Counted from the first letter of the stretch, positions 8,380 to 18,636 are shown. The stretch is DNA of 32,000 bases from Nostoc punctiforme PCC 73102 (GCF_000020025.1 NC_010628.1:5850001-5882000), one strand, 5' to 3'. Numbers and translations: made by a program. Notes: generated by a model not told the origin, from the sequence alone.

Positions 8380-9006
8380 TTATGTGGTAGTGTTTCCAGC
8401 TTGAAAAATCTGCTCGGCGGTTAAATTCAATTCCGGGAAAGTAGGTGAGATAATGCGATCACTCCCACGGAACTGTCTGACTTGGTATTCGCCCTCAACT
8501 AGTGAATAAATCGATATTGTAGGCTCTTTGGAATTGCCAATGAACGATTTGCCTGCCAGAGCTAGGTAATCTACAATCCAATACTCTAGAATACCAACTT
8601 CTTCATACACACCACGCTTAGTATAATAGTCAGTACGCCAATTGGTACTAACTACCTCAATCACCAGAGGAATTGATGCGGACTGAGTAACAGTAGATTC
8701 CTTTTTCCACAAAGGTTCATTTACGAGATTGGAGCGATTGATTATTAATACATCTGGAGAATAACCGGATTCATTTTCAGGTGGTTTTACGAGTGCTGTT
8801 TTTGGTATGAAGTAAGGAAGTTTAAGCCGGTCATATTCGATTGGAATTTTTGTAGCTAAAAATCCTGTGATCTCTTCATGATCGCCCAATGGTTGTGTCA
8901 TTTCTACAATTACTCCATCATGCAGTTCATATCGCCCCCCGTCAGGTTTCCACTGTACAAATTCTTCAAAGGTTACTAGCTTGGTTTTAGGTAAAGCTTG
9001 AGTCAT
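8380..9006 (-). CDS. Uma2-family (DUF820) putative PD-(D/E)xK endonuclease
   Basis: 208 aa. The sequence FEEFVQWKPDGGRYELHDGVIVEMTQPLGDHEEI...IEVVSTNWRTDY...YEEVGILEYWIVD is the typical Uma2 pattern, a family that is abundant in cyanobacteria. Confidence 0.8.
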   Translation of the reverse strand: MTQALPKTKLVTFEEFVQWKPDGGRYELHDGVIVEMTQPLGDHEEITGFLATKIPIEYDRLKLPYFIPKTALVKPPENESGYSPDVLIINRSNLVNEPLWKKESTVTQSASIPLVIEVVSTNWRTDYYTKRGVYEEVGILEYWIVDYLALAGKSFIGNSKEPTISIYSLVEGEYQVRQFRGSDRIISPTFPELNLTAEQIFQAGNTTT

Positions 9007-10805: not shown

Positions 10806-11864
10806 CTATGTTGTTGCTTTCTTCACACAGCGGGTATCCTTACCAGCCTCTTTGCAGTCTTCAAAAACGATTTTTTTATTAACAATCTCTTGTTTTGCAT
10901 TCAATACCTTTTGCTTTACTGCTTCCGGTATGATTGCTCCGAATTTCCCTAAAAATAATATATCTGGTCTTTCTAAACCAATTGTATATATTTGCCCTTT
11001 GATTTGTTTTTGTTTGGCTAATTCTGCTATGTAAGCTATGGCTAAATCTAAGCGTTTGACAGCGCTGGTTAAGACAGCTTTTGGTGCAACATCTAATTGA
11101 TCTTTGGTATTACCAAAAGCATATACTCCTTTTTCACCTGCTGTTTGTAAGACTGCGGCTGAAGCATTATCTAACCATTGATAGATGACATCAGCACCGG
11201 AAGAAACTAAGGCAAGAGTTGCTTCCTTAGCTTTGGCAACATCATCCCAATCACCTGTAAAAGTAGAAGTAATTTTGATATTTGGTTTAACAGACTTTGC
11301 CCCTAATTCAAATCCCCGCAGTTCTCCCTCGGTAGCGGGAAACTTCTCTCCAGCAATATAAGCTAATTTATTAGATTTAGTGAGAGAAGCACCGATAACA
11401 CCACACAAATAACTAGCTTGTAGGTGATCTATTCGTAAAGAAGCAATATTCTCACCCTTGAGATTACCATTTACTCCCACAAAAAATGTGTTGGGGAACT
11501 GTGAAGCGACTTGTTCAATTGCGGCATCAAATTGTCCGCCATGCGCGAAGATCAGATTGTAGCCTTTACGAGCAAAATCTGTTAATACTTCTGTTTGATC
11601 TGCTTGTGCTACCTTTTCTACATAGGCGGTTTCTGCACCTAGCTTTTGTTTTGCTAGATTGATTCCTTCATAACCAGATTGATTCCAGCCTTTGTCGGTA
11701 ATCGTACCAGGGAGAGCGATCGCTATTTTAAACCCTTCAGTACCACCTGTTGTTGTCGCTGTTGGTGTCGTCGGCTTATTACTGCAAGCTTGTACCACTA
11801 AGCTGGTAGCAAACGCGGCTGAACTAAACAAGATAAATTCACGCCGACTAAAGTTTGTTGTCAT
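10806..11864 (-). CDS. BMP-family (Med/PnrA-like) ABC transporter substrate-binding lipoprotein
   Basis: 352 aa. It has a signal peptide with a lipobox-like LVVQAC. The sequence KIAIALPGTITDKGWNQSGYEG...FAHGGQFD is typical of basic-membrane-protein nucleoside-binding SBPs. It is the first gene of the operon. Confidence 0.9.
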   Translation of the reverse strand: MTTNFSRREFILFSSAAFATSLVVQACSNKPTTPTATTTGGTEGFKIAIALPGTITDKGWNQSGYEGINLAKQKLGAETAYVEKVAQADQTEVLTDFARKGYNLIFAHGGQFDAAIEQVASQFPNTFFVGVNGNLKGENIASLRIDHLQASYLCGVIGASLTKSNKLAYIAGEKFPATEGELRGFELGAKSVKPNIKITSTFTGDWDDVAKAKEATLALVSSGADVIYQWLDNASAAVLQTAGEKGVYAFGNTKDQLDVAPKAVLTSAVKRLDLAIAYIAELAKQKQIKGQIYTIGLERPDILFLGKFGAIIPEAVKQKVLNAKQEIVNKKIVFEDCKEAGKDTRCVKKATT

Positions 11865-12117
11865 ACCTCGCCTTCAGATAAATAGTTATTTGAGTTATTT
11901 CAACACTCTAAAGTCGTAAGTGGTATTTTGGAAGCAATTTCTCCCGAATTTCTAAATTCAGCAAAATTACAGCATTATCTTGACTGTTTAGAGACAGCAG
12001 TAATTTATACAATAAATTTCTATTTTCCTTGAGTACCAGTAATTCATACTGTAACTTTAAGAAGTCGTGATTATGATTCTGATTGATTGGCTGATAATTT
12101 ACTGTGGAAAATATTTT

Positions 12118-12723
12118 TTATAATTCACTATCCGTAAAGGAAACTATGGATGGTAAAAATCTTTGATGAGATGGAGAAAATTCTAATCTTGCTGCACAAT
12201 CATCTATTTGTGATACTTCTAATTCAATTGTTTGTTCATTTTCTTCATCAAAAACCAATTGAATTTGATAATTTGTCCAAAATTGTTCGCCTAGTTCATC
12301 TTCTAAAGCTAAAAGTAGTTCTTCTTCATCACCCCATATATTCGACCAAAGGACTATTCTATTAGCCCGAAAATGATTTTGACCTGTTGTATCTCCAATT
12401 ACAAAATATGCTTCGACCCTTAAATTAAATTCTAAATCATCGACCTCTGCATCTGTGATATTACAGTTAACTATTATTAAGCTATCTGGGTTAACGTTTA
12501 CTAACTCCTCTTGACGTTTTAATAATTCTTCAAATACGAAATTCGGCAATAACTGGGAACTCTCTTCAAGTACTTGCTTTTGAGTTTCTGGTGAATAACG
12601 AGTTTTTAATTCTTGGGTGATTAAATTTAAAATATCTTTACTTGCTACATTGGCAACTATCTTTTTATTTGCAGGGTTAAGGAAGCATCCTTGATTAAGC
12701 TCAATGCGCTTTTTTATTGTCAT
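12118..12723 (-). CDS. hypothetical strongly acidic protein (orphan)
   Basis: 201-aa ORF in AT-rich DNA. My hand count is 37 D+E versus 16 K+R. There is no TM segment and no motif I recognise. Confidence 0.55.
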   Translation of the reverse strand: MTIKKRIELNQGCFLNPANKKIVANVASKDILNLITQELKTRYSPETQKQVLEESSQLLPNFVFEELLKRQEELVNVNPDSLIIVNCNITDAEVDDLEFNLRVEAYFVIGDTTGQNHFRANRIVLWSNIWGDEEELLLALEDELGEQFWTNYQIQLVFDEENEQTIELEVSQIDDCAARLEFSPSHQRFLPSIVSFTDSEL

Positions 12724-12789
12724 AGTTCTCTAAAGTACTTTTACTGCGATCGTATCATCTATAAATCAAATTAAAATTTGGTCGCATCA

Positions 12790-13137
12790 TTTTAAGAAGT
12801 GCCGCAGCTTGTTTGATTAAAGCATTAGCATCAAAGCTATAGCCGACACAGGCATAAACCCCACCTTGTAGAACTTGTCTGATTGCTTCCTAAGTAAGTA
12901 AACCACTGGCGACATTTAGATCCAATACTAAGTAAGTGATAACATTGTAATTGAGCGAAAGTGAAAATGCGATCGCGCACAGATGCTAGTTATGTTGCGA
13001 TTTGGTATTTATAACGTTGGGTTGATGGTTACTAAAAGAATACTATGGTATTTTCCTGGTGCTATGGGAGCCAATACATAAACACGCATTAAACCGCCAT
13101 CTGTTGTTAACTCGACATTGCACTTAGTGATTTGCAC
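12790..13137 (-). pseudogene. decayed dienelactone-hydrolase-family gene remnant
   Basis: Reverse translation from GTG 13137 gives (M)QITKCNVELTTDGGLMRVYVLAPIAPGKYHSILLV, then a stop at 13009-13011. This resembles the DLH N-terminus (x-DG-x-M-x-AY-x-x-P-x-x-G-x-x-P-x-hydrophobic run). Downstream frames are broken by stops. The extent toward 12790 is approximate. Confidence 0.35.
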
Positions 13138-13320
13138 TTTTTTGACTCCGTGTTATGCTTGCTGTCATTAGAGCAGCCTACTGTCGCCAGGCATTTATCC
13201 GCATTTACAAAATACCCGAACTTTTTACAGCATCTGTTTACTTTCAATCCACAAATTGGTGTTTTTGTCCCATCAGTGCGATCGGTTAATATGCATAGTG
13301 AAAGTTTGTTACGATTATCT

Positions 13321-13350
13321 TAATATTTAATAAATAAGTATTAAATATTA
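13321..13350. promoter_or_regulatory. perfect 12-bp dyad (candidate operator) upstream of mcrB
   Basis: TAATATTTAATA (13321-13332), a 6-nt spacer AATAAG, then TATTAAATATTA (13339-13350), which is the exact reverse complement. The dyad ends 38 bp upstream of ATG 13388. AAATAAGTA also repeats directly at 13332-13340 and 13353-13361. Confidence 0.35.
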
Positions 13351-13387
13351 TAAAATAAGTAATTTGGCTATTTAGATCATCCATGAT

Positions 13388-14977
13388 ATGAATCAAAAAA
13401 ATATTCTTACTTGGGGTGATGTAGCTTACGCTTCCCGAATTGCGACTGGAGGCTCAAAGCAGGAATGGGAGGCTTTAGAACTGATTTGGCAAGCATGGGA
13501 AATAATAATCTACACCGGACTTGCAACTTATTCTAATAAACGTGAGCTTTTGCTAGTAGTTATAAGATTTTTTGCTATTGTAAGTTTTTACCTGGAATTT
13601 TTTAATGATTATTATTGGGAATACTATATTAATAATTACAGTAGAGAGTGGCTTAAAGGTATTCACATAATTCCCGATTACAATGAATATATAATCGACT
13701 GTGTAAATGGTTTATGCTGTCCTATACTGCCAAAATCCGAACCAAATAATCTACTTTTGTACTTTGTCGAGAATGCTTTACAGCAAGTAATGCAAGTACC
13801 GATGGATAGCCTAAATAGTGACTCAATGATATTTAAATCTGTATGGGAAATTAGTCACCAGCAGTTTCAATTAGATGGAGATATATATGAGTTGCAGAGA
13901 AGAGAAGCTGAACTAATTAGTGAGAGTATATTTTTGGATAAGATCATAAACTTAGCCGAAATACATGAGAATTATAATCAAAACAATGAATTTATTAGAG
14001 ATGAAGCTGCAATCATAGAAATATTTTTTGACGAAGATAATACAGACTTAGAATGGATGAAATGCACAAATCATATAGATTTTCAAAAATCTCAAGAAGT
14101 TATAGATGCTACTAATAAATTTATAGCTTTTTTTTCCTGTTATCAAATAAAGCCTAACTTTTCTCTGAAGCATTGTTCTGAAATAATTGGGTTTAATGAA
14201 ACAGATTTAAAACGGTGGATACGTACAATTAATCGCAAAAAACAAATAATTTTAAGCGGTTCACCTGGAACAGGAAAAACCTTTATTGCTAAACACCTTG
14301 CAGAACATTTAATAGGTGGTAGTGATGGCTTCTCAGAACTTCTGCAATTTCACCCCACATACTCTTATGAAGACTTTATTCAAGGTATACGTCCTCAAAG
14401 CCAAGATGGACAATTAACATACCCTTTGGTTCCAGGCCGTTTTCTAAAATTCTGCAAAGAAGCAGAGTACCATCAAGGAACTTGCGTTTTAATTATCGAT
14501 GAAATAAACCGTGCTAATCTCGCACAAGTTTTTGGCGAACTAATGTACTTACTTGAGTACCGAAATAGAGAAATTCCACTAGCTGGTGGTAACACCTTTC
14601 GCATTCCAGAAAATGTCCGCATTATTGGCACGATGAATACAGCAGATAGGTCTATTGCCAATATAGATCATGCGCTACGCCGCCGCTTTGCATTTATCGA
14701 ACTTCGTCCAAATTATGATGTCCTGCGACGTTATCACCAAAAAAGAGGTTTTGCAGTAGAAGGATTAATTAATATTTTACAGCAATTAAATCAGGCGATT
14801 GCAGATAAAAATTACGAAATTGGTATTTCATTCTTCTTAACAGACAACCTACGTGAAGATATGGATGATATATGGCCTATGGAAATTGAACCATATTTAG
14901 AAGAGTACTTTTTTAATCAGCTAGCAAAAGTAGATGAGTTTCGCTGGGATAAAATAAAAGATAAACTATGGATATAA
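13388..14977 (+). CDS. mcrB: McrB-like AAA+ GTPase subunit of a type IV (McrBC-type) restriction system, with an unrecognised N-terminal domain
   Basis: 529 aa. Walker A GSPGTGKT starts at aa 291 and Walker B is VLIIDEINRA. The McrB-type NxxD motif is GTMNTADRS. RRRF is present, as is HPTYSYEDFIQG, typical of McrB/GTPase-subunit homologues. Residues 1 to ~265 match nothing I know. Confidence 0.85.
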   Translation: MNQKNILTWGDVAYASRIATGGSKQEWEALELIWQAWEIIIYTGLATYSNKRELLLVVIRFFAIVSFYLEFFNDYYWEYYINNYSREWLKGIHIIPDYNEYIIDCVNGLCCPILPKSEPNNLLLYFVENALQQVMQVPMDSLNSDSMIFKSVWEISHQQFQLDGDIYELQRREAELISESIFLDKIINLAEIHENYNQNNEFIRDEAAIIEIFFDEDNTDLEWMKCTNHIDFQKSQEVIDATNKFIAFFSCYQIKPNFSLKHCSEIIGFNETDLKRWIRTINRKKQIILSGSPGTGKTFIAKHLAEHLIGGSDGFSELLQFHPTYSYEDFIQGIRPQSQDGQLTYPLVPGRFLKFCKEAEYHQGTCVLIIDEINRANLAQVFGELMYLLEYRNREIPLAGGNTFRIPENVRIIGTMNTADRSIANIDHALRRRFAFIELRPNYDVLRRYHQKRGFAVEGLINILQQLNQAIADKNYEIGISFFLTDNLREDMDDIWPMEIEPYLEEYFFNQLAKVDEFRWDKIKDKLWI

Positions 14978-15945
14978 ACCCAGCACAACCAAGAATTATT
15001 GAACTTACAGAATACGAAAATAAATCATTTCAACGTACCGAAATACCCGATTCAGCAGGAGTTGAGTTATATGAAAAATACAAAACCCAAGTAGATATAG
15101 AATTTCCTACCTATAAAACGAGAGAACATTGGAAACTCCAAGCAAAAGGATGGGTAGGTTACATTCCTGTAACTCATAAATTGCATATAAAAATAAATCC
15201 AAAAGTGCCGCTCCAAAACCTCTTCGGAATGCTGGAATATGCCTACAATTTTAAAGGTTTCCGCTTTCTCGAAGGTATGATGGATTGTAAATCCTTAGAG
15301 AATTTTTATAATAATCTGGCTCATATATTAGCCGATAAAGTTTTAGAGCGATGCCGCAAAGGATTATATCGTACTTACTTGCCCAAAACACAGCAGCTTT
15401 CTTTTGTACGGGGAAGGCTAGATGTGCAACAGCTAATTCAAAAGCCGTGGAATGTTAAACTTAAATGCGATTACGAAGAACATACGGCTGATATTAAAGA
15501 AAATCAAATCCTGGCATGGACACTTTATATCATTGGTCGTAGCAGCTTATGTTCAGAGAGAGTATCACCAACAGTACGAAAAGCCTATCATGCCCTACAA
15601 GGATTAGTAACGCTGCAACCTTGTAGCACAGAAGATTGTATTTTCAGACAGTATAATCGCCTTAATCCTGACTATGAACTATTACATAATTTATGTCGAT
15701 TCTTTTTAGAAAATAGTAGCCCCAGTCATGAGAGAGGAAATTACAAAACTCTACCTTTTCTCGTCGATATGGCACATTTATATGAACTTTTTGTTGCAGA
15801 ATGGCTTAATAAAAACATACCACAAGGCTATTTTATTAAACAGCAACATCCAATAGAAATTAGTCAGAATCGGCATTTCAGTATAGATATATTACTGTGT
15901 GATACCGATACTGGCAAAACAATAGCAGTTTTGGATACAAAGTAG
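14968..15945 (+). pseudogene. mcrC: McrC-like nuclease subunit, 5' part (325 codons), truncated by IS insertion
   Basis: The ATG overlaps the mcrB stop by 10 nt (ATGGATATAA). The McrC-like N-terminal region is WKLQAKGWVGYIPV...IKINPK. The fragment ends FSIDILLCDTDTGKTIAVLDTK, followed by a TAG supplied at the IS junction. Confidence 0.85.
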
Positions 15946-16946
15946 ACTTGTCGGGAAATAAGAGAGAATAGACAGCAGTGGTAGGGAAGAATGATGCTGA
16001 ATATTGAAGGTGCGCTGAAGCAAGACCGACTGTTGAGGGCATTAACTGGGTTGAACCGGAAAGCATTTGATGCCCTTTTGCCCACGTTTACCACGATGTA
16101 CCTAGATACTCAACAGGCCAAGCCTCGTCAACGTGGCCTGGGTGGAGGACGCAAAGCCCGCTTACTTACAGCCCAAGACAAATTGTTTTTCATCCTTTTC
16201 TATTTCAAATGTTATCCGACCTTCGATGTGGCGGGACTGCTCTTTGATATGCATCGCTCCCAGGCACATGAGTGGATGCATCGATTGCAGCCAATATTAG
16301 AAGCGGCTTTGGGACAGAAGATGGCGCTGCCGGAACGCCATCTCGAAAGCATTGAAGCATTTTTGTCACGCTTTCCAGGAGTGCAACGAGTGATGATTGA
16401 TGGGACAGAACGCCCAATTGCGCGACCTCAAGAAAGAGAACAACAACAACAGAATTACTCCGGTAAAAAGAAACGTCATACGCATAAACACTTGGCGGCA
16501 GTTGATGAAACCAAACGGGTCTTGATCTTAAGCAAAGCACGAGAAGGCAAACTGCATGACAAACGTTTTCATGACGAAGATGACATTGCAGGTAGTGTGC
16601 CTGATGAAATTCCGATTGAAGTAGACTCGGGCTTTCAGGGATTACAGAAGCAGTATGACAATCTCCATCTTCCTCACAAAAAGCCCAAAGGGGGCAAGTT
16701 AAGTGACCTTCAAAAAACGGAGAATCGTCAATTGAGTCAATCCCGTGTAGTTTGCGAAAATGCCTTTGCTGGTGTGAAGCGCTACAACGCCGCCAGTGTC
16801 ATTTATCGTAATCGGATTGAAAACTTTGATGACCATTTGATGCTGACCGCAGCAGGATTATGGAACTTCTACTTGATGGCTGCTTAAGAGAATCCCAATT
16901 ACAAGACCAGCATTGCCTCACTTATCTTTTATTTCCCGACAACTCT
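15944..16946 (+). mobile_element. IS5-family-like insertion sequence (DDE_Tnp_4/Harbinger-type), 1003 bp
   Basis: The left end is AGACTTGTCGGGAAATAAGAGAGAA. The reverse complement of the right end is AGAGTTGTCGGGAAATAAAAGATAA (22/25 match). AGT flanks both ends (15941-15943 and 16947-16949). Removing the IS plus one AGT copy restores an open mcrC frame. Confidence 0.85.
15991..16887 (+). CDS. IS5-like DDE transposase (N-terminal HTH plus DDE_Tnp_4-type core)
   Basis: 298 aa. The sequence MIDGTERPIARPQEREQQQQNYSGKKKRHTHK...SGFQGL...ENRQLSQSRVVCENAFAGVKRY is the pattern of the PIF/Harbinger-IS5 DDE superfamily. Confidence 0.8.
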   Translation: MMLNIEGALKQDRLLRALTGLNRKAFDALLPTFTTMYLDTQQAKPRQRGLGGGRKARLLTAQDKLFFILFYFKCYPTFDVAGLLFDMHRSQAHEWMHRLQPILEAALGQKMALPERHLESIEAFLSRFPGVQRVMIDGTERPIARPQEREQQQQNYSGKKKRHTHKHLAAVDETKRVLILSKAREGKLHDKRFHDEDDIAGSVPDEIPIEVDSGFQGLQKQYDNLHLPHKKPKGGKLSDLQKTENRQLSQSRVVCENAFAGVKRYNAASVIYRNRIENFDDHLMLTAAGLWNFYLMAA

Positions 16947-16948
16947 AG

Positions 16949-17176
16949 TATAAAGCTCCTGAACAGGCAGGAAATACAGATATTTATCAAATGATCAGCT
17001 ACGCCAACACAACAAAATGCGAACAAGCCTTTTTGATATACCCTAAAGACTTGACACACCCACTAAATATTAAAAGCGATCAAATCCGAGTCCGCAGCCT
17101 CACCTTTTCCCTAGATGATAATCTCGATCGCACAGGTCAAACCTTCTTAAAAAACCTTTTTCTCCTAATCCCTTAA
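16949..17176 (+). pseudogene. mcrC: McrC-like nuclease subunit, 3' part (75 codons) displaced by the IS
   Basis: This frame reads YKAPEQAGNTDIYQMISYANTTKCEQAFLIYPKD. It is the expected continuation of the PD-(D/E)xK core (DTK-YK ... YQ ... LIYP). It joins in frame to codon AAG 15940-15942. Confidence 0.8.
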
Positions 17177-17180
17177 AACT

Positions 17181-17352
17181 CACACCAATAAATTAGTAAA
17201 GGGGATAGATGACATTCGCTTGTGGCGAAGCACCCATCCCCGAATAGCTGCCCAGATCATAAACCTGGAATCTATAGTCCGGTATCTAATCATCCCAGTA
17301 TCGTTCGAGATATGTCGATTGTCACTGGGATAGATACTGATTTAGAACATAT
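17181..17352 (+). pseudogene. 3' remnant of a monomeric PheRS-like (PheS-family plus FDX-ACB) gene, frameshifted
   Basis: One frame reads HTNKLVKGIDDIRLWRSTHPRIAAQI, which resembles the PheS C-terminal DIRLF...RFLKQF. A second frame reads IYSPVSNHPSIVRDMSIVTGIDTDLEHIYEKI, which resembles the FDX-ACB start S-K-x-P-x-x-x-RD-hydrophobic-S/A. No N-terminal catalytic part is present. Confidence 0.4.
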
Positions 17353-18636
17353 CTACGAAAAGATAGTTACACAATTACTGTTTTTCACCCCTTCCATACC
17401 CAACAGCGCCGTTCCGTAAGCAGCTTCTGTATACACTGAAGCTACTACAGGAATCTGTAAATAACGCGCCCTAATCGCAGTCCAAGTATCATTAGCCGCG
17501 CCACCGCCAGCAGTATAAACACGACTTAACTTGTCTGCTCCCATTTGCTGTAATAATTCATACCCTCGTGCTTCTATGCGTGTAATACCTTCTAACAACC
17601 CATGCAAGAATTCCACTGGATTATCTGGGCGTGGTTCCAAACGTGGGGCTAAATTAGGATCGTTAATTGGAAAACGATCGCCTGCCTTCAACAACGGATA
17701 ATAATCTAACTCCCTGGCAATTGAAGCATCAATCTCCCGACTAAGGCTTTCTAACTCAGCGTTGGTGAAAAATTGCTTAAGTACTGCACCTCCAGTATTA
17801 GAAGCACCACCAGTCAGCCACAAATCACCTAGCCTATGGCTGTAAATTCCATATCTGGCATCTTCTACACGGGTACGACTTAATAACTTTAGTACCAATG
17901 TTGAACCAAGGGAAGTCACGGCTTCACCAGGTAATTTTGCACCACTGGCTAAAAAAGCCGCAATACTATCAGTTGTACCTGCACATACAAGACAATCACG
18001 GCTAAAACCAAACTTATCCATAATTTCAGGACGCAATTCGGCAATGGGAGTCCCAGGAGTTAAAACGTGGGGTAGCTGAATCGGTATTTGCAGTTTTTCT
18101 AGCCATTCTGGGTATTTCAACTCTTCCACGTCATAACCCAGCTTTAAAGCATTATGATAATCGCTAATTCCTAACTGTCCATGTAGGAGAAACCCCAGCC
18201 AATCTGCCTGATGCAGAAAATATCTCGCTTCACTAAAAGAGGGTAATTGCCTCATCCACAAAAGTTTGGCTAGGCTGGAGGTGGCACTTAACACGGTATG
18301 ATTAGGGGGTGCTATACTCCTCAAATGCTCTAGCAGCAATGATCCCCGCGCATCGTTATACATCAGTGGCGCGTCTGTTGGATTACCAGCAGCATCAACT
18401 AGTAAGACGGTGGAAGAAGTACCATTAATTGCGATCGCTTTAATTTTTCGCCGCAATTGGTCAGGTATTTGTTCCAGCAGTACAAACAAAGCCTCCTGCC
18501 AAATTTTTGGCGTAATGGTGGCTGTTGAGTCTTGGAAGGGATATCTCACCTCAGCCTGAATACAATAGGCTTCCTCGTCAATTACCACGCCGCGTGCGCC
18601 AGATGTACCGAAGTCGATACCCAAATACAAATTCAT
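17353..18636 (-). CDS. FGGY-family carbohydrate kinase (xylulokinase-like)
   Basis: 427 aa. The N-terminus MNLYLGIDFGTSGARGVVID is the FGGY/actin-fold phosphate-1 motif. GGASNTGGAVL and YTAGGGAANDTW appear in the C-terminal domain. Confidence 0.85.
   Translation of the reverse strand: MNLYLGIDFGTSGARGVVIDEEAYCIQAEVRYPFQDSTATITPKIWQEALFVLLEQIPDQLRRKIKAIAINGTSSTVLLVDAAGNPTDAPLMYNDARGSLLLEHLRSIAPPNHTVLSATSSLAKLLWMRQLPSFSEARYFLHQADWLGFLLHGQLGISDYHNALKLGYDVEELKYPEWLEKLQIPIQLPHVLTPGTPIAELRPEIMDKFGFSRDCLVCAGTTDSIAAFLASGAKLPGEAVTSLGSTLVLKLLSRTRVEDARYGIYSHRLGDLWLTGGASNTGGAVLKQFFTNAELESLSREIDASIARELDYYPLLKAGDRFPINDPNLAPRLEPRPDNPVEFLHGLLEGITRIEARGYELLQQMGADKLSRVYTAGGGAANDTWTAIRARYLQIPVVASVYTEAAYGTALLGMEGVKNSNCVTIFS

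Follow-up and report, generated by a model that had tools for sequence, protein, structure and literature searches.

The locus described here raises the question of whether a stretch of DNA that differs in composition from its surroundings must have arrived recently. We analysed a window of 32,000 nt from Nostoc punctiforme PCC 73102 (NC_010628.1:5850001-5882000; all coordinates are counted from its first nucleotide), in which the interval 12118-17352 carries mcrB and mcrC, the genes of a McrBC-type restriction system. The interval is AT-rich, poor in the octamer HIP1 (GCGATCGC) and bordered by gene remnants. The original prediction, made from the sequence alone, explained these features by the recent arrival of a foreign, AT-rich defence island that replaced a resident dienelactone hydrolase (DLH) gene and a PheRS-like gene, leaving stubs of both. 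Our results give a different answer: the mcrBC cassette is very probably an old resident of a variable slot that occurs across the genus Nostoc, disabled in this strain by an insertion sequence (IS), and not a recently imported island.

The prediction was right about the type of system, since mcrB and mcrC were both confirmed by matches in Pfam and NCBIfam, and mcrB also by matches in the Protein Data Bank (PDB). The mcrB gene (13388-14977, plus strand) is intact and encodes 529 amino acids, with the motifs GSPGTGKT (Walker A), LIIDEINR (Walker B) and GTMNTADRS (the MNxxDRS/NxxD signature) in its translation. Residues ~265-515 form the AAA+ GTPase domain, which matches the E. coli McrB structures 6HZ4 and 6UT6 at E 1e-47; Pfam assigns this domain to AAA_5 and the NCBIfam McrB model covers residues 269-516. 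The mcrC gene lies on the same strand and overlaps mcrB by 10 nt (14968-14977), an order of genes that is also found in 25 other Nostoc loci. Its codons 1-325 (14968-15942, plus strand; Pfam PF10117 McrBC, E 7.8e-38) and its codons 326-400 with the stop codon (16949-17176, plus strand) are separated by the IS. When the IS is removed, the two parts are in frame and give an uninterrupted open reading frame (ORF) of 400 amino acids, in which residues 77-375 align to positions 4-330 of the 353 of the NCBIfam McrC model and the catalytic motif SID...LDTK is present. The NCBIfam scores were 162 bits for McrB and 115 for McrC, against equivalog cut-offs of 637 and 338, respectively. PADLOC returned no match for McrC and only generic restriction endonuclease/AAA models for McrB. 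Judged by these domains and motifs, the operon is an ordinary two-gene McrBC system, i.e., a motor-driven restriction system of type IV. Solved McrBC complexes (PMC7680126) and the family census in PMC11090510 suggest by analogy how it would work: McrB would form a hexamer through its AAA+ GTPase domain, with the N-terminal module selecting the target, and McrC would bind this ring through an N-terminal domain of its own, stimulating GTP hydrolysis and cleaving with the PD-(D/E)xK nuclease.

The element that interrupts mcrC spans 15943-16948 (1006 bp including the duplicated target, plus strand) and is assigned to the IS5 family on its inverted repeats and its transposase. The inverted repeats, at 15943-15968 and 16922-16947, are 26 nt long and 88% complementary. 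The transposase gene (15991-16887) matches DDE_Tnp_4 and HTH_Tnp_4 in Pfam and the IS5 family in NCBIfam. Like other IS5-family elements with a DDE_Tnp_4 transposase, it is about 1 kb long, has a single transposase ORF and imperfect terminal inverted repeats, and lies in an AT-rich target containing TA. Its GC content is 46%. Deletion of 15943-16948 restores the sequence ...AVLDTKYKAPEQ..., which is the same as in intact orthologs, and the part of McrC encoded behind the IS (codons 326-400) is 85% identical to residues 326-405 of an intact McrC (locus L071). The target duplication would measure 2-4 bp; AG, TA, GTA and AGTA all fit, and with a single copy the ends of the IS stay ambiguous, as the window, the fetched loci described below and the PLSDB plasmids contained no further copy. 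In every independent public assembly of this strain, the sequence breaks off 28-30 nt inside the IS, which is consistent with a repeated element that is truly present at this site.

The position of the IS is informative, as it sits directly behind the lysine codon of the catalytic D-T-K (D-x-K) motif and deprives McrC of its last 75 residues. Loss of these residues most likely leaves the McrBC system of this strain nuclease-dead, and the strain is not expected to retain GTP-dependent cleavage of modified DNA. Because mcrB and both parts of mcrC are otherwise intact, the insertion is probably young.

To place the cassette in its genomic context, we fetched the corresponding loci of 80 Nostoc species by their FGGY kinase gene, with flanks of 10 kb, and clustered their ORFs; 76 of these loci, labelled L007 etc., were informative for the presence of the cassette. 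In the window, this anchor gene of an FGGY-family sugar kinase (17353-18636, minus strand; Pfam FGGY_N and FGGY_C) is native and convergent with mcrC, from which it is separated by a spacer of 176 bp (17177-17352). The kinase is 87-97% identical across the 80 genomes. In the majority layout it is followed by a variable slot, a DLH gene (246 amino acids, PF01738) and then conserved genes, including that of valyl-tRNA synthetase.

The same mcrC-mcrB pair was found at the same position in 25 of the 76 informative species, with both ORFs full length in 17 loci and split or truncated ORFs in eight. Three loci have mcrC remnants adjoining other cargo, and about ten further loci without the cassette retain short 3' remnants of mcrC. 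The remaining slots differ in content: a different McrBC-like pair occupies eight, a REP-associated tyrosine transposase (RAYT) six, five are empty, and the rest hold other or no recognisable cargo. The second McrBC-like pair (L015, L034, L038, L046, L048, L060, L065 and L084, about +340 to +4100 after the FGGY gene) consists of a 530-amino-acid protein with DUF2357 and PDDEXK_7 domains and a McrB-like ATPase of 704-713 amino acids with TPR repeats and a DUF2461-like N-terminal part; its GC content is 37% and its 27.6 kb of summed sequence hold no HIP1. The RAYT genes (Y1_Tnp, ~240-255 amino acids; L016, L030, L042, L044, L056 and L081) are often fragmented. A cluster of ORFs overlapping the 3' end of the FGGY gene (c9) was considered as an intact PheRS-like gene and rejected, since its full-length members are RAYT (Y1_Tnp) transposases. 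As to other cargo, L025 (11954-14032) has a TIR-domain GTPase with a small partner ORF and L057 (11977-12981) a dCTP-deaminase-like protein with a C-terminal extension, each adjoining an mcrC 3' remnant, and L041 (4070-5227) carries a type I HsdS-like specificity protein in the slot.

In the empty loci (L052, L064, L070, L076 and L035), homology to the window resumes ~62 bp upstream of the mcrB start codon. The true variable cargo is thus limited to ~13326-17176, and the conserved intergenic DNA between the DLH remnant and mcrB (13138-13325), which is still present in the empty-slot genomes, lies outside it. With conserved anchors, alternative defence cargo and empty states, the locus is a chromosomal defence hotspot, and in this respect the variable, defence-rich nature proposed for it is borne out.

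The comparison with relatives also bears on the age of the cassette. Among relatives with an intact cassette, the closest is Nostoc sp. UCD121 (L011), whose identity to the window is 93.5% in mcrB-mcrC and 94.4% in the neighbouring stub and FGGY gene. Pairwise nucleotide distances across 18 genomes average 0.079 for mcrC and 0.092 for the FGGY gene, and the distances of one gene correlate with those of the other (Mantel rho 0.62, p = 2e-4). Recent acquisition does not agree with these results, given that an orthologous cassette lies in the same syntenic position in 25 other species, diverges like its flank and has the same low GC content there. Neither an integrase gene, nor a tRNA gene, nor flanking repeats were found at the cassette borders, and the IS inside mcrC is the sole mobile element. 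Judged by what the prediction itself named as telling against recent acquisition, the outcome is only partial: the same genes were found at the same locus in a third to half of the relatives, not in most of them, and their composition is not native-like.

Composition is one line of evidence in favour of a recent foreign island, and GC content, GC content at third codon positions (GC3) and HIP1 density indeed are below those of the flanks. Without the IS, the region 11901-17176 has a GC content of 34.6%, which is lower than in all 360 windows of equal length outside it (minimum 39.6%, mean 42.2%). The five GC values counted on single 60-nt lines in the prediction were correct (21.7, 38.3, 36.7, 40.0 and 45.0%). 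The three lowest GC3 values in the window belong to an ORF of 201 amino acids left of the cassette (0.198, the lowest), mcrB (0.258) and mcrC (0.273); the other genes range from 0.28 to 0.45. The AT-richness of the interval is therefore real and beyond chance. For HIP1, the estimate of about one copy per kb agrees with the 27 perfect copies in 32 kb (0.84/kb, against 0.19 expected from shuffles), and as predicted, the copy at 12969-12976 is the only one between 11716 and 18431. This gap is weaker evidence than GC. Absence of HIP1 from a fixed interval of 5455 bp has P = 0.01, whereas the probability that the longest gap among 27 random sites reaches the observed length is 0.17. Moreover, 13 of 25 other genes in the window lack HIP1 entirely, and ~1.1 kb of the gap belongs to the FGGY gene, which is native, and 1.0 kb to the IS.

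Inspection of orthologous positions gives an explanation for the gap. It contains one-mismatch HIP1 sites at 13278, 14795 and 17674, and perfect HIP1 copies occur at the orthologous positions in relatives. The site in mcrB (14795-14802) is a perfect HIP1 in nine of ten aligned orthologs and reads GCGATTGC in the window, a single C-to-T change. The site in the FGGY gene is perfect in all ten aligned relatives and reads ACGATCGC here. Upstream of mcrB, the sites at 13278 and 13311 have decayed as well. The long HIP1-free run of this strain is thus largely due to its own point mutations, and the idea that absence of HIP1 marks foreign DNA does not hold for mcrB, where an ancestral, conserved copy was lost. 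In all 26 cassette-bearing genomes, the cassette has a GC content of 33-38% as compared to 41-43% for the rest of the locus, and in these genomes HIP1 density is 0.37/kb in the cassette and 0.78/kb outside it. Since the low GC content is common to all orthologs, the atypical composition does not date the arrival. Low GC and HIP1 poverty are thus a lasting trait of an old resident cassette and not the mark of a recent arrival.

Two further observations concern HIP1 at the edge of the cargo. Near mcrB, the edge (~13311) coincides with a HIP1 site in several relatives (L012, L036, L022 and L037), for which the window has the decayed ACGATTAT. In the empty-slot genomes (L052 and others), two HIP1 copies at most 40 nt apart are found at the junction.

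Pseudogene fragments on both sides of the cassette would also fit replacement of resident genes, as was proposed. On the right, the frameshifted PheRS-like stub was confirmed: 17193-17374 (plus strand) is an ancient fragment of a PheS-related ligase (SrmL), of which two adjacent frames match NCBIfam NF051887, one at positions 218-244 (E 7e-6) and the other at 244-278 (E 1.5e-4). NCBIfam was the only source that recognised it, as a phmmer search against PDB and a Pfam scan gave nothing. The stretch 17177-17352, which holds most of the fragment, recurs with 81-96% identity in each of the 80 loci, the empty ones and those with other cargo among them. Presence regardless of the cargo indicates that the SrmL fragment predates the cassette and was not made by it. 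The frame offset is the same as in the window in 69 of the 80 loci. In ten loci (e.g., L012, L018, L019 and L036), both SrmL-like segments share one frame; the fragment may have acquired its frameshift after the genus diversified, or it may have been repaired by a second indel.

On the left, the proposed DLH stub (12790-13137) turned out to be composed of two unrelated pieces. Its right part, 13027-13137 (minus strand), is indeed a 5' remnant of a DLH gene encoding residues 1-37, with 62% identity (E 6e-9) in a tblastn search to the 246-amino-acid DLH of L083; DNA homology of the window to L012, L019 and L033 begins at 13034-13039. The remainder was examined as the DLH C-terminus (12790-13026) and rejected, because it is part of a pseudogene fragment of a RarA/MgsA-like AAA ATPase (12779-13019, minus strand; residues 468-546 of 738). 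This fragment is 67-69% identical (tblastn, E 1.5e-21) to a 738-amino-acid ATPase of N. flagelliforme and matches NCBIfam NF009881 at positions 490-544 (E 5e-9). It has in-frame stop codons and one frameshift, and the HIP1 copy at 12969 lies in it and not, as had been assumed, in DLH-derived DNA. A non-coding stretch of 664 bp, in which both remnants are located, separates mcrB from the 201-amino-acid ORF.

That ORF (12118-12723, minus strand), which encodes an acidic conserved hypothetical protein (pI 4.3), had been regarded as an orphan belonging to the island. A homolog search gave 136 homolog clusters with 62-90% identity in Nostoc and Nodularia, so the gene is no orphan; the protein had no Pfam match at E up to 1 and no match in PADLOC. 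In N. flagelliforme its homolog lies directly downstream of the gene for the 738-amino-acid RarA/MgsA-like ATPase (L087, 5608-8603). It never adjoins mcrBC in other loci, and its GC content is 32-35% in other genomes too. It is a conserved Nostoc gene and not a part of a defence island. Next to it is the gene for a Bmp/PnrA-like ABC substrate-binding protein (10806-11864, minus strand; Pfam PF02608, E 1.5e-60), which forms the native left flank and adjoins the locus only in the clade of the window (L007, L009, L010 and L090). From this arrangement, the left side reads as the scar of a rearrangement that joined a block of the RarA-like ATPase gene, the 201-amino-acid gene and the Bmp operon to the 5' end of the DLH gene, leaving two pseudogene fragments. 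The DLH gene was thus cut by an event separate from the cassette, and replacement of resident genes by mcrBC explains neither stub.

The remaining point in favour of a recent island is that the closest relatives, L007-L010 and Nostoc sp. TCL240-02 (L090), have no mcrBC. These strains share the rearranged left side and lack the equivalent of 12795-15933. A junction joining TTTTA to GATACAAAGTATAAAGC is common to L007 and L009, and the mcrC remnant is further eroded in L008, L010 and L090. An ancestral arrangement in these relatives, with an insertion in the window, was ruled out, since in the window the ATPase fragment and mcrC run contiguously across the junction points. The window accordingly shows the older arrangement, and it is the relatives that underwent a deletion, which left mcrC 3' remnants. 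We infer that one branch deleted McrBC and that the branch of the window inactivated mcrC by the IS. When the deletions, the orthologous cassettes with their HIP1 copy in mcrB, the genus-wide SrmL fragment and the lack of integration signs are considered together, recent import of a foreign island becomes highly improbable.

The two lesions of mcrC are close together. The deletion of the relatives ends 9 bp upstream of the entry point of the IS (15933-15943 in the window), so that both fall in the catalytic LDTK codons. For a 2.8-kb cassette, two independent hits no more than 10 bp apart would be a coincidence of ~1%. No mechanistic link between them was found, and the relatives are uninterrupted across the IS site.

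If the cassette is an old resident, the question remains what its McrB would recognise. The N-terminal module of the window McrB (residues 1-~262), which we call type A, is acidic (pI 4.5) and contains 15-20% aromatic residues. It has no Pfam match at E up to 1, PDB gave no sequence match for McrB outside the AAA+ domain, and Foldseek searches of a type A model against PDB and BFVD returned nothing below E 0.5. AlphaFold2 modeling with five close sequences was unusable (predicted local distance difference test, pLDDT, 38). With an alignment of 24 sequences, a helical model was obtained with a pLDDT of 62 overall and 82-90 for residues 1-110, the sole confident part. The module is thus predicted to be all-helical, and in these searches none of the known classes of modified-DNA reader (DUF3578/ADAM, EVE, YTH and others) was recognised.

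The type A module is rare. A word-indexed homolog search found five Nostoc fragments only, and a profile search of 1.84 billion representative proteins gave 20 matches. Some of these form the very N-terminus of McrB-like AAA_5 proteins, and those with a named source come from cyanobacteria (Nostoc sp. MS1 and an Aerosakkonemataceae strain); others are free-standing. Two free-standing homologs of ~196 amino acids are encoded at L092 6001-6591 and L093 295-885. The former is located inside a mobile element with integrase, DnaB, HTH_17 and Xre genes in a Planctomycetota metagenome-assembled genome, and the latter lies beside two DNA methyltransferase genes on a metagenomic contig. Their distribution hints that defence systems and mobile elements have the type A module in common. 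In the Aerosakkonemataceae protein P0136 (811 amino acids), type A is fused via a DUF2461-like middle part to the McrB AAA+ lineage that is paired with DUF2357/PDDEXK_7 proteins, which indicates that the module has moved between two McrB families.

A modified-base specificity of the E. coli kind would be problematic in this host. Nostocales generally carry DmtC, an m5C methylase of CGATCG, and this sequence lies inside HIP1 (PMC4390886). The host therefore probably methylates its own HIP1 sites, and an RmC reader like that of EcoKMcrBC would be expected to attack host DNA. The non-canonical N-terminal module fits a specificity other than RmC.

Comparison of the cassettes shows that this part of mcrB is exchangeable. 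At least three non-homologous types of McrB N-terminus occur at the locus: type A, as in the window, and types B and C, for which Pfam likewise gave no match. In a sliding-window comparison, identity to the window from ~14500 rightward (the 3' part of mcrB, mcrC, the stub and the FGGY gene) is 86-96% in genomes of all types. In genomes with types B and C, it is 74-80% over 14200-14500 and drops to 40-55% over 13300-14200, which corresponds to non-homologous sequence. The N-terminal type does not track FGGY distance, which is 0.088 within a type and 0.094 between types, and L036 is a mosaic within the type A module itself. The 5' ~1.2 kb of mcrB is thus exchanged across species on a shared backbone. 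This mosaic pattern points to sensor swapping by homologous recombination, for which phage pressure would be the selective cause. In four type B loci (L018, L022, L074 and L075), two extra genes are located between mcrB and DLH, encoding a 158-amino-acid ASCH/EVE-like (PUA-fold) protein and a 702-amino-acid protein that has a GNAT domain as well as a weak PIN-like match; these loci may form a four-gene variant of the McrBC system.

The spread of the three types, the sharp mosaic boundary at ~14200-14500, the second McrB lineage of P0136 and the patchy presence of the cassette also suggest that the cassette, or its 5' sensor part, moves among Nostoc by homologous recombination in the flanks, in which case the allele of this strain could be a fairly recent import from within the genus. 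Such an import into the strain itself is possible but doubtful: mcrC and the 3' half of mcrB co-diverge with the FGGY gene, and the type A region of L011 is 88-97% identical to that of the window, similar to the flank, so that no recent import is visible. As to what type A does, one could speculate that it is a sensor of a new kind, with a target other than modified bases, e.g., one that binds a phage or mobile-element protein or itself acts as a decoy target, and that Nostoc species keep such sensors at one locus as a trans-species polymorphism by recombinational swapping onto a shared motor and nuclease. We regard this proposal as rather unlikely.

Some points weigh against an old, resident and IS-disabled cassette. 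It is absent from more than half of the species, and some lineages may owe it to exchange within the genus and not to descent. Its composition is truly atypical, with no drift to the genome average, which fits an ultimately foreign origin of older date. Finally, the truncated McrC would retain the D-x-K residues and the McrB-binding domain and may have partial or altered activity. An extension of the last point is that the locus is still functional, for example with McrB acting alone or together with truncated McrC as a sensor or translocase, the helical N-terminal module sensing a target other than modified DNA. The intact mcrB, the preserved McrC residues 1-325, the acidic, all-helical character of type A without match to known readers, and the stand-alone homologs in a mobile element and beside methyltransferases are in line with this. 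On the other hand, the 75 missing residues fall in the region aligned to the McrC family model, and the outright deletion of the system in sister lineages suggests relaxed selection in the clade. Continued function is consequently unlikely, and the explanation that best accommodates the data is still a resident cassette that has probably lost its nuclease function.

The rest of the window adds little to this picture. No Rfam families or tRNAs were found across the window, and its promoter-like and terminator-like sites showed no enrichment over shuffles. A gene of the Uma2 family (8380-9006, 208 amino acids; PF05685, a restriction-endonuclease-like fold) lies amid the ABC transporter genes of the Bmp operon and is also found in L010.

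As a defence system, the locus is ordinary, and in this strain it is probably dead: it is a canonical McrBC operon with an uncharacterised sensor module, in the course of being lost. Its significance is rather that the cassette keeps an atypical signature genus-wide while it diverges in step with a housekeeping neighbour, which calls for caution, as low GC and missing HIP1 are not readable as recent transfer in cyanobacteria. The locus further provides a clean natural restriction hotspot outside the enterobacteria, in which whole systems as well as sensor modules within one gene are exchanged and from which systems also disappear through IS insertion or deletion. The helical module is a modest lead for type IV restriction specificity.

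The closest characterised counterpart is McrBC of E. coli K-12 (EcoKMcrBC; structures 6HZ4, 6UT6 and 7VSR), which likewise has two overlapping genes, a GTPase with Walker and MNxxDRS/NxxD motifs, and a McrC with a McrB-binding N-terminal domain and a PD-(D/E)xK nuclease. Unlike the E. coli system, with its DUF3578/ADAM reader, the window McrB starts with a rare acidic helical module without Pfam or fold match, and its mcrC is IS-disrupted. The AAA+ domain also matches McrB of Thermococcus gammatolerans (6UT3, E 7e-38). That system and McrB homologs with YTH, EVE or other readers share the conserved motor and McrC and the exchangeable N-terminal specificity module (PMC11090510, PMC7680126). The alternative McrB readers described are PUA-like or ADAM; the type A module is none of them and is predicted to be helical instead of a beta-barrel.

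At the level of the locus, the Nostoc slot resembles the enterobacterial Immigration Control Region, for which cassette-like variation between the conserved anchors yjiA and yjiN has been described (Sibley and Raleigh, 2004, reviewed in PMC12707154). That region has fixed anchors, an empty site in some genomes and alternative restriction cargo that includes McrBC or its replacements, as seen here. The Nostoc slot differs in that it belongs to another phylum and is anchored by the FGGY kinase gene with the SrmL fragment on one side and by DLH on the other, and in that not just whole systems are swapped but also the sensor module inside one gene.

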